Source: Candidatus Bathyarchaeia archaeon
GTDB taxonomy: Archaea; Thermoproteota; CALKCG01; B24
Assembly (NCBI GenBank): GCA_038870975.1
Contig: JAVZJD010000001.1
Location: 896,001-960,000 of the forward strand
Length of the DNA stretch: 64,000 nt
Direction of reading: 5' to 3'
A model generated the notes under the pieces. It saw nothing but the letters and a program-made list of their open reading frames with translations. It made no database searches and was not told where the DNA came from. The translations under genes were made by a program, and so were the position numbers. This document shows, piece after piece, positions 8,326-13,791 of this stretch. The stretch's first letter is position 1, and each line of letters opens with the position of its first letter.

Positions 8326-9084
8326 ATGTTAGATGCCGTCATTCTAGCCGCCGGTAGAGGCACTAGGATGAGGCCCTACTCTAACGCGGTTAACAAGGAG
8401 ATGTGTCTCATAGGCTATCACCCTATCATAGAGTACTCGGTCAGAGGCTTAGCCTCAGCAGGCTTAAAAAGAGTATTCGTAGTCTTGGGAGAGCGTAAAA
8501 GCCAGATAATGGAGTACCTTCGAGACGGCTCAGACCTAGGCATACGCATAGCCTACCTATTCCAAGATATGAAGCACGGTGAAGGAACCGCTAAAGCGGT
8601 CGAGGCGGCTGAGGGATGGATAAGTGGAGACTTCATGGTCATCTACGGAGACAGCTTCTTCCACCCTACAGACTTCTTCAAGGAAATAGTCCAGCTACAC
8701 GTGGCTAAAAAGCCTCATGCAACCATGGGCGTATATTTAATGAGCCGATACAGAGAGTTCGGGCTTCTAAAAGTGGAAAGTGGATTGGTTGAAGACAGCC
8801 TAGAAAGGCCATCTGAGGCGGAGGCTGAAGAAGCCAAGATAAACGGCCTATACCCTGTGAACTCTGGACCCATGATATTCAACCCCACCGTCTTCGACTA
8901 CATAAAGAGAACATCCATATCCCCAGCTGGCGAATACTGGATAACCGATACCGTAAAGCTCATGATACGGGATGGGCTTAAAATCCAAGCATACATAATA
9001 CCCCGAACCGTATTCTGGAGAGACATAGGGAGACCTGAAGCGAGAATAGAAGCAGAAAAGTATATGCTTGGAAAACAGCCATAA
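8326..9084 (+). CDS. Sugar-phosphate nucleotidyltransferase (glucose-1-P thymidylyltransferase-like)
   Basis: AVILAAGRGTRMRP, GTAKAV, IYGD, WRDIG. Confidence 0.9.
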   Translation: MLDAVILAAGRGTRMRPYSNAVNKEMCLIGYHPIIEYSVRGLASAGLKRVFVVLGERKSQIMEYLRDGSDLGIRIAYLFQDMKHGEGTAKAVEAAEGWISGDFMVIYGDSFFHPTDFFKEIVQLHVAKKPHATMGVYLMSRYREFGLLKVESGLVEDSLERPSEAEAEEAKINGLYPVNSGPMIFNPTVFDYIKRTSISPAGEYWITDTVKLMIRDGLKIQAYIIPRTVFWRDIGRPEARIEAEKYMLGKQP

Positions 9085-9149
9085 GAGAGTGAACTAAGCT
9101 AGTCGTAATTCTTCTCAGCTTCAAACCTGACATATGCCATTAGGTTTCT

Positions 9150-9338
9150 ATGCAATCTTATATGAGTAAGCCTAGGCGTTTCACGCTAGCCTCAACCTCC
9201 TCAGACGGACGTGTTGAGAAGCGTGAAAACCTAGATGTCGAACAGCTCATAGGCGAAGTATATTTAACCCTACGTAGGCTTATAGAAGAACTCTTAAACA
9301 TAAAAGAGGTGAGAATAGAAGTAGAGAACATTTTATAA
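9150..9338 (+). CDS. Small hypothetical protein
   Basis: Short ORF with coding-like composition; no motif recognised. Confidence 0.35.
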   Translation: MQSYMSKPRRFTLASTSSDGRVEKRENLDVEQLIGEVYLTLRRLIEELLNIKEVRIEVENIL

Positions 9339-9570
9339 CTATCCAACTACTTTCAAACAGAGCTTTTTAAAATATTTTGAATCATAGTAGGCATATCGTC
9401 TTCTTCCTGTCCCCCCATTTAAGAGACAGAAAAACCCGCTTCTTATATTTGGTAGCAGTTCTATATGACCGTATATGCGAAGTACTGTCCATTATTTTTA
9501 CGACACGATAACGTATAGAGACGGAAGCCTATTTATTCCAGTACTATTAGTTTAGTTTTGAAAGAGGTAA

Positions 9571-9703
9571 ATGTCTAGTCAGGAAAAATTGAGATCAATA
9601 CTTGGTAGGTTTTATAGTCTTATTAGAGAAGTTTTAGAGAGGCGTGAAAGCGGTCTCAGGTTTAATATTCCATTCCTTAGCGCTAGCGAGATTTCTGAGC
9701 AGG
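9571..9703 (+). pseudogene. N-terminal fragment of a Cas4-like PD-(D/E)XK nuclease
   Basis: SD GAGGT + ATG; 'LRFNIPFLSASEISEQ' resembles the start of Cas4-like nucleases just before the first Cys; abuts the truncated vapC. Confidence 0.4.
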
Positions 9704-9927
9704 AAGAAACGTCTAGCCGTATTGTAGTCTTCCTCGCTTATTCTGTTGAGGTATTTGGCTCTATCTAGCACTCCTAAAACTTCGCCGATATTCCATGTGC
9801 TGAAGGCGAGTTTCACATCCCCGGTATACGTTTTGACGTATAGTTCTCTGACTTTATCGGTGCCAGCCTCTTCAATATACCTTTTAACTATTGCGCTACT
9901 GTCTAGATATGCTGTCTGCCCGTTCAT
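9698..9927 (-). pseudogene. vapC: VapC/PIN toxin, 3'-truncated
   Basis: YLDSSAIVKRY and WNIGEV PIN motifs; only ~75 codons before running into the antisense of the 9571 fragment. Confidence 0.7.
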
Positions 9928-10168
9928 CCCTCATCGCCCTGATAAGCTCGCTTACAGAACCCTCCCTAGGTTTTACGGGTTTAAACTCCAGCTCGTAGAA
10001 TCCTAAACCTGTCAACTCCTCTAGGGCTTTATCTACGTAATCCATCAACTCCTCGCGAATAACCTCCTCGAGTAGGATGCTTAATTCTACCCCCTCTTCC
10101 AAGGCGCGTCTTTTAAGCCTACGCCAGAGTTCATCATCAACATAGACGCTGCTTTTCTTTCTAGCCAT
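9896..10168 (-). CDS. vapB: Ribbon-helix-helix VapB-type antitoxin
   Basis: KKSSVYVDDELWRRLK..A RHH, C-terminal SELIRAMRDER; overlaps vapC start. Confidence 0.8.
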   Translation of the reverse strand: MARKKSSVYVDDELWRRLKRRALEEGVELSILLEEVIREELMDYVDKALEELTGLGFYELEFKPVKPREGSVSELIRAMRDERADSISRQ

Positions 10169-10514
10169 ATAGAAACCTATAGGTATATACTGATAAACCA
10201 TATTTAAATTTTCCCAGCCTTAACAGGTTGTTGAAGCGAAACCTAAACTTGAAGACGCTTAATCTAAAGTTTAGTATTCCGGTAGTCTGGAGATTCAGCT
10301 TATTTCAACGGTTTCTCCGCTTGGACTAAAGGATCTGCTTGACACGGCTGTTGAAAAGTATAGAATTGAAACTTCTGTAGAAAGGGAGGATTGTATGGAG
10401 CTTCCGTTAGATTGTTTGTTCAAGTTCCCCTAAAATCTTCCTTGGTCTTATAGGTTTGTTTGAATGTTTTATGTTGAAAGCGTCTAAGAGCCGCCTTATG
10501 CTACTTGAATATGT

Positions 10515-10615
10515 ATGGGTGTTTTCAGGGATAGGGATAGGCTTCTACCAGACTTTCCGATCGAGGATTACTGGGATAGCCTCCCGTATAGGGATTTTGA
10601 GCTTAAAAAGCTCGG
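10515..10615 (+). pseudogene. N-terminal fragment resembling Orc1/Cdc6
   Basis: MGVFRDRDRLLPDF...LPYRDFELKKL resembles the Cdc6 start (IFxDRxxLxPDY..LPHRE); no Walker A follows. Confidence 0.35.
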
Positions 10616-10998
10616 TATGGTGAGGATCCTTATGATGAAGGAGACCTCTAAAATCACTTGCCCAGTTAAACGAGGGGGAAAAACCTCGGGAGTAGCATAC
10701 TCCTACGAGCATGGGGTTCAGCAATGCTGTGGATCGCTCAGAATCATGTGAAACGTATACAGATGGTTTCGTTTAAACCCATACGACAAGCTGAACACAT
10801 CACACCATAGAAGTGCCTCCAAACACTCAAACCCACTTAAAACTCCGCTGAAAAATATGGGTCGACGAATTTAAAGCCAAGAGGAGAATATGGAAAACCA
10901 GGGAAATACTACCTTGATAATTTAGAGTAAAATACAGGATAGAGGGGAGGGGATATAACCCCCACAATAAGCTCCATAATCATCCATAAAACTCAGTA

Positions 10999-11085
10999 CT
11001 TTCAATTCTCTCTATGAGATTCGATGAGTACAGTTTACGGTTTAGAGTAAAATTTCACCTACTTTCAATTCTCTCTATGAGGTTC
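10999..11085 (-). CRISPR. Two-repeat, one-spacer mini-array in reverse orientation
   Basis: Exact reverse complement of the repeat at 10999-11022, one-mismatch copy at 11062-11085, 39-bp spacer. Confidence 0.9.
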
Positions 11086-11207
11086 TTCCACTTGGGCTTC
11101 GGTGGAAATCCATACCTTAAATGCAGATTAAGCACCACCGAAGTAGCACCACAAAATTTAAATGCAGAAAACGCTCTAACAACGAAATAGAGCAAGAAAA
11201 ACCCTCG
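11086..11207. promoter_or_regulatory. CRISPR leader/promoter region between the divergent arrays
   Basis: AT-rich, palindromic ATTTAAAT at 11156-11163 after an A-run; 9-bp inverted repeat CTTCGGTGG 11097-11105 / CCACCGAAG 11135-11143. Confidence 0.6.
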
Positions 11208-12600
11208 GAATCTCATAGAGAGAATTGAAAGAGCCTTCCTCTTGCTATTAACCCGAAGTTCACATATACATCCAGAATCTCATAGAGAGAATTGAAAGCT
11301 TCGCTGTACGAGGAAGAGAAGAACATTCTGACGGCTATCTGGAATCTCATAGAGAGAATTGAAAGTTCGCAAGGTGGCTGGGCATTCTGACCGTGGACGA
11401 GAAGAATCTCATAGAGAGAATTGAAAGGAATGATGTCGGCGGGAGAGTCGTCTACGGGAGGAGACGGCGGAATCTCATAGAGAGAATTGAAAGAGCTTTT
11501 TAGCGCGTTCTGCTACTTCTCTTTCTCTTGGGAATCTCATAGAGAGAATTGAAAGTTTGAGATTCCGAGCTAGAAGCGCATCTGTAAACTTCCATCCGAA
11601 TCTCATAGAGAGAATTGAAAGAGGATCGTATGAAAGCCAGAATATTTATCGCTCTCCCATCCAGAATCTCATAGAGAGAATTGAAAGTGAGAAAATGGCG
11701 ATGGCAAACCGCGCTGGCAGGCTGATAAGGCAGTATCTCGGAATCTCATAGAGAGAATTGAAAGCTGGCTCAGGCTTGGGCTTTGGAGCCTTGGCTCTCT
11801 CTGAATCTCATAGAGAGAATTGAAAGGAATTGAAAACTCTGATTCCAACGGTCGAAGATGTGTCTAGAATCTCATAGAGAGAATTGAAAGTTATTATGAC
11901 GAGTATGAAGAGGTAAATAACGTACACGAATCTCATAGAGAGAATTGAAAGTTTTAGTCTTTACCTTAATTTTTTCAACCGTCTCTGAATCTCATAGAGA
12001 GAATTGAAAGGACACATATGCTTTTACTGTACAAGTCAAGAGACTTGATTTACCTGAATCTCATAGAGAGAATTGAAAGGATGTATGTAAGCCAGAATAT
12101 GAATTTAACGTGTTTGTTGAATCTCATAGAGAGAATTGAAAGTACTTCAATTTTTAGACATTTTGCACATTTAGATATTTTCTGGAATCTCATAGAGAGA
12201 ATTGAAAGCAAATCCATAAGGGAAGCTTTTAGCTCTAACGGGAGGCTCGAGAATCTCATAGAGAGAATTGAAAGAGCCATCTATCTGCTGAGCTTCCCAT
12301 ATCCGACCTACGGAATCTCATAGAGAGAATTGAAAGTTCTTTCACTCAACTTTTCTTGTATTCATGTTTTCTAGAATCTCATAGAGAGAATTGAAAGTCT
12401 GTAGCTACGTATATCATGTATCCGACGCCTATACCCGCCACGATCCCCGAATCTCATAGAGAGAATTGAAAGCACATTTCTTTTTCCCACGTTATTGCCG
12501 ACAACAGGAGGTGTTGGAATCTCATAGAGAGAATTGAAAGACGTCTGGCTTGAAAGTAGACTAAGCCACAATGATTGAATCTCATAGAGAGAATTGAAAG
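11208..12600 (+). CRISPR. CRISPR array, 22 identical 24-bp repeats (GAATCTCATAGAGAGAATTGAAAG), 21 spacers of 35-53 bp
   Basis: Repeats counted directly; ATTGAAAG 3' end typical of Thermoproteota repeats gives + orientation. Confidence 0.99.
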
Positions 12601-12711
12601 AGCTCCATCAGAAAGACTAAATGGTGACGCTGAGAAGCTTCTCCCACCTCAGAGTAAACCGCGGTCATTCACAAAGAATAACGCTAAAAGGAGTAAGTTG
12701 AAAAACTTAAT

Positions 12712-13791
12712 TTGGAGATTGAGGAGTTAAATCTAACCGTGCTCTTAAACGGTTTAGATATGAACTATACCCCTCTTATGAGAGAGCTTGGTTTAAAATG
12801 GAGAGATAGGGATGGAAGGGAAATAGACAACCTACTAGCATTTTTCAAAGGCAAGGGAGTAAACTGCCTCAGAGTTCGAATATGGTTTGGCGGTTCAGGC
12901 CCCTCAAGACTACCCTATGCTTTAAAACTGGCTGAAGAAGCCTACACTTTGGACTTTAAAATCCAGCCTACGATTTTCCTATCCGATGGCTGGGCCGACC
13001 TTTATAAGCAGCCTGAGCCGAAGGATTGGGCTTCACTTAGCCTCCAAAGCAGATTGAACAAGATTAAATCGTACGTCTCCAACGTCGTCGAATCTTTAAC
13101 GCCTATTATGGATAATTGCGTATACTTCCAGGTTGGGAATGAAATAGACTATGGAATATGCGGATTCTATGCACGCGATGGGAAGAAGAGGAAGAACTTT
13201 GAATGGCTTAGAAAACACGTATGGAAATATGAATCTATAATCCTGAGTGAATCGTTTAAAACCATTAAAACCTTCTGTGGGAAACCCGTCGCCCTACACC
13301 TAGGTAAGTGGTGGGATCTAGAGTTGATATCGTCCTTCCTCTCAGCGATGGATGAATTTAAAGTTGAATACGAAATCCTATGCTTCTCCTTCTACCCTTC
13401 GATGTTTGGAGCAAGCTTAAACCAATTGGAAGGGCTTAGAAAGATAGCTGAAGAAAGAGGGAAGCTTATTGCAATAGCGGAATACGCGTATCCAAGCTGT
13501 CCAGTTAAAGGACAATTCTGGTTTATGAGTAAACCTTCACCCGGCTACTCGTTGACCCCTGAAGGGCAGTCCTTATGGTTGAAAGACTTTCTAACCCACT
13601 GTAAAAGGTTGAACGTGTACGCAACTTTCTACTGGAGCCCAGAACTCTACCTTATGAAGAATCAAATTAAAAAGTTATACGTATCGGAGGAGATGCCTCT
13701 AGACTTCGGCTGGGGGCCGATGTCCCTCTTCGATGAAAAAGGATATGCTAAACCATGCGTGGAATCGCTATCCCATGGTGTAGCGGACTGA
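12712..13791 (+). CDS. Glycoside hydrolase family 53 (endo-beta-1,4-galactanase-like)
   Basis: GVNCLRVRIW, SDGWAD..KQ..P, QVGNEI, SFYP, AEYAYP. Confidence 0.85.
   Translation: MEIEELNLTVLLNGLDMNYTPLMRELGLKWRDRDGREIDNLLAFFKGKGVNCLRVRIWFGGSGPSRLPYALKLAEEAYTLDFKIQPTIFLSDGWADLYKQPEPKDWASLSLQSRLNKIKSYVSNVVESLTPIMDNCVYFQVGNEIDYGICGFYARDGKKRKNFEWLRKHVWKYESIILSESFKTIKTFCGKPVALHLGKWWDLELISSFLSAMDEFKVEYEILCFSFYPSMFGASLNQLEGLRKIAEERGKLIAIAEYAYPSCPVKGQFWFMSKPSPGYSLTPEGQSLWLKDFLTHCKRLNVYATFYWSPELYLMKNQIKKLYVSEEMPLDFGWGPMSLFDEKGYAKPCVESLSHGVAD

Follow-up and report, generated by a model that had tools for sequence, protein, structure and literature searches.

A one-spacer inverted CRISPR mini-array at the leader of an orphan array in a Bathyarchaeia genome: a probable stub of a second array

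Introduction

In the type I-A loci of Sulfolobales, divergent pairs of CRISPR arrays flank a csa1-cas1-cas2-cas4 adaptation cassette, and in Escherichia coli integration away from the regular site has led to 'neo-CRISPR' formation. Small arrays have also been described in a regulatory role: in the sections of Shmakov et al. 2023 (PMC10120712) on which we draw, regulatory mini-arrays lie inside cas loci, usually carry one degraded repeat, and hold a spacer with a partial, PAM-flanked match to a promoter. For the archaeal adaptation machinery, the excerpted part of PMC6698737 describes Cas1-Cas2 of Pyrococcus furiosus as able to integrate in vitro not only at repeats but also at sites resembling them, with features of the repeat as the main guide. 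Integration in this organism requires a pyrimidine at leader position -3, as stated in the available part of PMC13748974.

Here we describe a mini-array of two repeats and one spacer that lies, inverted, at the outer edge of the leader of a much longer array in the genome of a Candidatus Bathyarchaeia archaeon. The window is the whole stretch of DNA that was analysed (64,000 nucleotides, G000:C1:896001-960000), and positions are given relative to its first letter. The genome of 1.85 Mb comprises two contigs, has a G+C content of 41% and is 92.9% complete. In full-text searches of the literature we met no account of a CRISPR leader with an inverted repeat at its outer edge, a result that is not proof of absence.

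Results

Anatomy of the locus

The mini-array lies on the minus strand and consists of an outer, flank-side repeat (10999-11022) that matches the main-array repeat at 24/24 positions with 0 mismatches, a single 39-nt spacer (11023-11061) within the 35-53 nt range of the main-array spacers, and a leader-side repeat (11062-11085) that matches at 23/24. The one substitution in the latter, at 11082, falls on its leader side, at position 4 in the crRNA sense, and the 8-nt 3' end that would form the 5' tag of a crRNA is intact in this repeat as in the other. An interval of 122 bp (11086-11207, plus strand) leads to the main array, an orphan array identified by repeat scan that comprises 22 perfect 24-nt repeats and 21 spacers of 35-53 nt (11208-12600, plus strand). 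The first-pass annotation had placed two reverse-complement repeats, one with a single substitution, around a 39-bp spacer at a distance of 122 bp from the first repeat of a 22-repeat array, and all of these positions were confirmed. The motifs that it named in the interval were likewise found: a palindromic ATTTAAAT box (11156-11163) in plus orientation with an A-rich stretch ahead of it, a CTTAAA that reads TTTAAG on the minus strand (11116-11121), a duplicated TTAAATGCAGA (11117-11127 and 11158-11168), and a 9-bp inverted repeat with arms at 11097-11105 and 11135-11143.

The main-array repeat ends at its 3' side in ATTGAAAG, which we take to be the 8-nt crRNA tag of archaeal type I and type III systems. 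This placement of the tag indicates that the main array is read on the plus strand, and hence that the mini-array has the minus strand as its sense strand and points away from the interval between the two. Rfam gave only sub-threshold CRISPR-DR45 matches on the repeats, and the strand assigned by that model is uninformative. A repeat-pattern scan of the whole genome returned 26 matches compared with 0 in the reversed control, so the repeats of the mini-array are not chance occurrences. With at least two direct repeats of the genome's repeat family and a spacer of normal length, the mini-array is an array in the ordinary sense. It is also chromosomal, as its neighbours are housekeeping genes (a nucleotidyl transferase, a GH53 glycosidase, RNase P p30 and a proteasome subunit) and include no viral genes. 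A tRNA scan of positions 9000-13000 found none.

On the flank side, 35 nt outside the mini-array, the sequence holds a palindrome of the form GGGG-ATATAA-CCCCC (10950-10964). When read by eye it resembles a GGGGTATATAAAACCCC element that the cas-linked arrays of contig 2 have in their leaders, and it could serve as a promoter in either direction.

Variation of the mini-array between strains

A metagenome contig from a related strain (L022) carries the same flank and the same leader with one perfect inverted repeat between them and no spacer. In the alignment, the window and L022 differ at this place by exactly 63 bp, equal to the 39-nt spacer plus one 24-nt repeat, with 1 substitution in 119 nt of flank around this unit and 2 substitutions and 1 single-base gap in the leader. 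Identity between the two is 93.5% over 10439-11022 and 97.4% over 11060-11210, and synteny runs on for several kb upstream. The exact size of the difference indicates that close strains have diverged here by the gain or loss of a single repeat-spacer unit, and the content of the mini-array therefore varies by a whole unit, as is the case in ordinary CRISPR arrays. The locus exists in two states among these strains, namely one inverted repeat without a spacer (L022) and two repeats with one spacer (the window). A long second array in relatives, which the first-pass annotation had considered, is not what L022 holds at this place, where there is the single inverted repeat only.

In contigs from three other studies (X2, X3, X5) the left flank (10600-10991) is of the L022 type, sharing its 5 substitutions and 1 gap, and there is also an 83-nt contig that consists of 10970-11019 followed by 33 letters diverging from the spacer of the window. 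Among the pieces listed for these samples none covers 11023-11061, and contigs of this kind drop rare variants; the pieces are thus no more than compatible with the spacer-less allele. The spacer itself had 0 matches in the 55 other loci that were fetched.

The main array has changed to a far greater extent over the same comparison. Its 21 spacers in the window share 0 with the 5 visible in L022 or with the 22 of a further contig (L029), and L029 and L022 have one main-array spacer in common. Since the main array has turned over fully while the mini-array changed by one unit, the site of the mini-array is much less active.

The sequence upstream of the locus also differs between the strains. 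A 116-aa open reading frame with no Pfam match is intact in L022 (L022:11914-12264) and is broken across three frames (55, 78 and 28 aa) in the corresponding part of the window (10456-10810); parts of it are found at 72-83% DNA identity in genomes of the same family (G002, G004, G005, G007). A strain-variable segment lies just upstream and measures 0.74 kb in the window (9702-10439) as against 3.4 kb in L022 (L022:8503-11897). The segment of the window contains a 101-aa open reading frame with no Pfam hit. The segment of L022 contains a gene for a DUF6785/DUF6784 membrane protein and one for a PD-(D/E)XK nuclease with a C-terminal cysteine cluster, possibly Cas4-like, whose Pfam match is to the superfamily only.

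The interval as a member of a leader family

Junctions between leader and first repeat were collected from 50 loci on metagenome contigs and 5 on genome contigs, and 20 distinct leaders, each with 135 nt or more of upstream sequence, were aligned, namely those of the window and L022 together with 18 others. All 20 contain a ATTTAAAT-type box with an A-rich stretch ahead of it, another T(A/T)A(A/T)ATGCA box further upstream (20/20), and an inverted repeat of the form CTTCGG.../...CCGAAG (20/20). The motifs of the interval are thus ordinary features of a leader family. The first-pass annotation had read them as signs of a bidirectional leader; 18 of the 20 leaders have no mini-array or inverted repeat behind them, so that these motifs cannot be adaptations for such a function. 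The A-rich element precedes the ATTTAAAT box on the plus strand, and the minus-strand side is without one, so that as far as the sequence can tell the promoter of the leader points to the main array, and no promoter for the mini-array is evident.

The arms of the leader inverted repeat (window 11097-11143, alignment columns 26-72) are 29 nt apart. Seven pairs form in all 20 leaders and one pair covaries, being C-G in 14 and U-A in 6, although this covariation may represent a single evolutionary event. Given its position upstream of the array promoter, the inverted repeat is more likely to be a DNA-level or protein-binding element than a part of the pre-crRNA.

The leader-side repeat of the mini-array borders on the distal end of the main array's leader, and independent copies of this leader cease to resemble each other within about 5 nt of the inverted repeat. 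At leader position -3, the main junction has a T and the junction of the mini-array has a purine, which by analogy with the partial P. furiosus account suggests a low efficiency of integration at the mini-array.

cas genes and related arrays

The only Cas1 of the genome lies on contig 2, as do all of the cas genes that were found, and these are on a different contig from the mini-array. The array of the window is therefore an orphan that would need those proteins in trans. On contig 2, two long divergent arrays of another repeat family, which has the same last 15 nt as the repeat of the window and a different 5' half, flank a csa1-cas1-cas2-cas4 cassette. To one side of these arrays lies a type I-A module (csa3, csa5, cas7, cas5a, a weak CsaX match, cas3', cas3'' and cas6), and to the other a type III-D module with several Csx7-like proteins, Cas10 and a weak Csx10 match.

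Near-identical leaders were found on a contig labelled as belonging to a different candidate archaeon. This contig, from a metagenome-assembled genome named as Ca. Haiyanarchaeum thermophilum (L074:4485-7745), has two divergent arrays of the same repeat around csa1-cas1-cas2-cas4, and the leader of the window is 98.4% identical to both of its leaders over 125 nt, compared with 74% to the leader of a genome of the same genus (G002). This disparity points to transfer of an array module between lineages or to a binning error.

Solitary copies resembling the repeat occur elsewhere in the genome, at G000:C2:430899-430922 (minus strand, 1 mismatch), G000:C1:509203-509226 (plus strand, 2 mismatches) and G000:C1:508574-508597 (plus strand, 5 mismatches). 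A DUF2204 nucleotidyltransferase gene adjoins the first of these, at a distance of about 3.3 kb from the type III-D module. The last may be a relic of a leader plus repeat, as the degenerate leader that precedes it resembles that of G002 by eye only; no synteny was detected between the array flank of G002 and this leader-like relic at C1:508.5 kb. A shared relic is present in genome G003 (L013:131-174) and in contigs L046, L048 and L075, where the last 26 nt of a leader are followed by a repeat truncated after 21 nt, with a tRNA gene ending about 80 nt away. In this lineage, arrays have often collapsed to single repeats.

A probable stub of a second array

The mini-array is best explained, with a probability of roughly 0.7, as what there is of a second array, a stub that runs in the opposite orientation and adjoins the leader of an active orphan array at its outer edge. 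The leader-facing end of this second array would have been joined to the outer boundary of a leader module of about 125 nt. From there, the difference between the strains could have arisen in either direction. A unit would be lost by recombination between the two direct repeat copies of the stub, and one would be gained by a rare off-leader integration at a solitary repeat, carried out by the csa1-cas1-cas2-cas4 proteins of contig 2 as the only adaptation module of the cell. The comparison includes no polarising outgroup, and we favour loss over gain by a narrow margin.

For the origin of the layout, deletion of one leader and the cassette from a pair like that of L074 would yield what is seen in the window. 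The deletion would need ends at two element boundaries, which a random deletion rarely has; at a guess, such precise ends might stem from reactions at the junction of leader and repeat, where the integrase itself cuts. The first-pass annotation had proposed a relic of a second array left after cas deletion, and this proposal, the nearest of its three to our own reading, is plausible and upheld in part: the L074 pair, with its near-identical leaders around a cassette, speaks for a divergent ancestor, whereas the window itself retains no cassette and one leader.

Were the stub transcribed on the minus strand from the leader region, Cas6 would be expected to cut both repeats and release a canonical crRNA with an 8-nt tag, a 39-nt guide and a 16-nt 3' handle, which could be used by I-A or III-D effectors. 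The stub looks like a leftover or barely started array rather than a special regulatory RNA gene, and its spacer is most likely of the ordinary immune type, with the stub weakly expressed or silent.

A possible shared leader for two arrays

An alternative is that the second array is active and is served by the same leader, which would either work in both directions or flip between the 24-bp inverted repeats that bracket it; a flipped leader would serve the stub, and the spacer would have been acquired in that state. The perfect 24-bp inverted repeats on both sides of the 122-bp leader in L022 would suit this explanation, as would the placement of the extra repeat-spacer unit of the window on the leader side and the palindromic ATTTAAAT box. 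However, the only other contig with the left flank (1/1, L022) has its leader in the same orientation, and the window and the Logan contig described below show one orientation. The main arrays have turned over fully while the stub holds 0 or 1 spacer, and the same leader motifs occur in the 18 aligned leaders that have no stub. We regard this explanation of the locus as improbable. The broader proposition, that one leader serves two arrays from both ends or by flipping and that a solitary repeat at its outer edge can be seeded with spacers, is at least as doubtful; if true, it would provide a route for the birth of new arrays.

Spacer targets and the regulatory reading

The newest main-array spacer (spacer 1, 11232-11274) matches the viral contig L079 (IMG/VR, 8,959 nt) at 43/43 positions (L079:1317-1359). 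This contig has no CRISPR repeats and carries CCT directly 5' of the protospacer on the crRNA-sense strand, whereas the opposite orientation would give ACC. The PAM of type I-A systems is CCN, with which CCT agrees, and the plus orientation of the main array is thereby confirmed. From this match the main array is a working immune array. Spacer 1 also overlaps by 37 nt with the ninth spacer of a metagenome array (L058), which suggests that the virus matching L079 is targeted in other samples as well.

For the spacer of the mini-array, exact scans of IMG/VR gave 0 matches for the whole spacer and 0 for both halves, and a search of a phage collection gave chance hits only (E=7, enterobacterial phages); the mini-array and main array as a whole had no match in that collection. 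A viral match, such as an ordinary spacer may have and which the first-pass annotation had counted against a regulatory role, was therefore not seen in either source beyond chance. This says little, since only 1 of the 3 main-array spacers tested gave an exact viral match.

The spacer also has no self target: the best ungapped match genome-wide is 26/39, and apart from its own site the only 12/12 seed match has no extended pairing. No site in the cas loci (C2:428-476 kb) was present among the matches listed; the first-pass annotation had suggested that the cognate cas operon be located and its promoters compared with the spacer, and the operon, on contig 2, yielded no such match. A 13-nt stretch in the flank (10921-10933, plus strand) is identical to 11041-11053 in the spacer and lies 120 bp from it. 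The identity covers spacer positions 9-21 and not the seed, L022 has the flank copy as well although it has no spacer, and exact matches of the spacer across the genome number five 13-mers and one 14-mer. By our own estimate, an identity of this kind would arise in this neighbourhood about 1 in 1,000 times by chance; as it was noticed after the fact, it is possibly a chance match.

These results bear on the possibility that the mini-array is a regulatory crRNA-like gene of the CreA/CreR type, whose guide would repress a partially complementary promoter through an effector complex. Its form of two repeats and one spacer, with one repeat slightly altered, is what such a gene would have, and the 13-nt identity to a site 120 bp away could be taken as a partial target. 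Against this stand the low self complementarity, the lack of a cas-locus site among the matches listed, the unextended seed match and the position of the 13-mer outside the seed. The locus is on another contig than all cas genes, and neither repeat is strongly degraded, there being one substitution in one of them. The first-pass annotation had proposed to look for a spacer conserved in relatives while main-array spacers turn over; the main array has indeed turned over, but the sister strain L022 does not have the spacer. A regulatory role is not supported by these data and is largely refuted; we consider it very unlikely.

Distribution and the anti-repeat reading

The arrangement was rare in the material surveyed. 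Of 56 leader junctions fetched, 31 had at least 190 nt upstream and could be assessed, the other 25 being too short, and an inverted repeat within 450 nt (at most 5 mismatches) was present in 1/31, that of L022. A pattern scan found the arrangement in 0/16 other genomes of the class, which are the same genome set as for the order. Degenerate repeats at the outer leader edge were sought as well: the best ungapped matches were 11-14/24 and no better than shuffles (17/18 leaders tested, one further leader reference being too short for the test). A degenerate outer-edge repeat in L074, suggested by resemblance to the eye, was rejected as unsupported against shuffles. In this sample the arrangement is a peculiarity of one locus, which counts against the stub reading as well.

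A plus-strand transcript that began upstream, for example at the GGGGATATAACCCCC element, would traverse the inverted copies before entering the main array, and would thus act as an anti-repeat RNA able to pair with the repeat inside the pre-crRNA. The TATA-like palindrome 35 nt upstream of the stub, the perfect complementarity over 24 nt and the retention of the inverted repeat, unlike the spacer, in both strains are in keeping with this. To our knowledge, however, type I-A and III-D systems use no tracrRNA-like pairing partner, and the genome, at 92.9% completeness, yielded only I-A and III-D modules and a Cas6, with no type II or type V. An inverted repeat of this kind is also missing from the class genomes and from 30/31 assessable leader junctions. 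An anti-repeat RNA is accordingly unlikely, and slightly more so than a regulatory guide.

Assembly of the locus

In a Logan assembly of run X1, one contig of 24,633 nt spans 10600-11500 with 0 differences and 0 gaps (901 bases); X1 is probably the source sample, and its agreement, from the same reads with another assembler, does not represent independent data. L022, from an unrelated JGI metagenome assembly, shares both the junction of flank to inverted repeat and that of inverted repeat to leader. An artefact in which the repeat unit was mis-joined or inverted, a concern of the first-pass annotation, is thus next to negligible, since two assemblers returned identical 901 bases in a single piece and the independent assembly reproduces both junctions, even though repeated sequence is difficult for assemblers and only the probable source sample X1 is known to contain the spacer.

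Discussion

The locus provides a natural before-and-after pair, in which a solitary inverted repeat (L022) and a repeat-spacer-repeat (the window) occupy the same spot. It bears on the shrinkage of arrays to single repeats and on whether a lone repeat that has no proper leader can take up spacers. Under a gain of the unit, the window would record off-leader integration in the wild, in an archaeon whose one adaptation module serves a foreign repeat family; under a loss, the change would be ordinary array decay. In either case, the locus comes off the list of candidate regulatory crRNA genes.

Like the regulatory mini-arrays (CreA of CreTA, CreR) in the consulted sections of PMC10120712, the stub has two repeats and one spacer apart from the main repeats; it differs in its position outside a cas locus, its near-perfect repeats, its lack of a PAM-flanked partial target and its loss or absence in L022. 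The virus-borne mini-CRISPR arrays in the available extract of PMC6858448 similarly have 1-2 spacers, whereas the stub is chromosomal and has no viral neighbours. A further comparison is with the solitary repeats of Francisella, presented in the consulted sections of PMC10120712 as remnants of lost arrays. The L022 allele is likewise one solitary repeat, and other relics of this kind occur in the present genome and in G003; the L022-type copy differs in being perfect, inverted and placed on the leader of a live array, and that of the window in having a spacer. Off-leader integration by archaeal Cas1-Cas2, as outlined in the excerpted part of PMC6698737, would explain the gain of a unit at a repeat without a proper leader, with the difference that for the window such an integration is a proposal from sequence and the change may have gone in either direction.

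The layout itself is close to the divergent pairs around an adaptation cassette, such as those of contig 2 and L074. The window differs from these in having 122 bp, one leader and no cassette between its arrays, and in that one array is reduced to 1-2 repeats that abut the outer leader edge of the other. It shares with them two arrays of the same family that point apart, and its leader is 98.4% identical to both leaders of the L074 pair.
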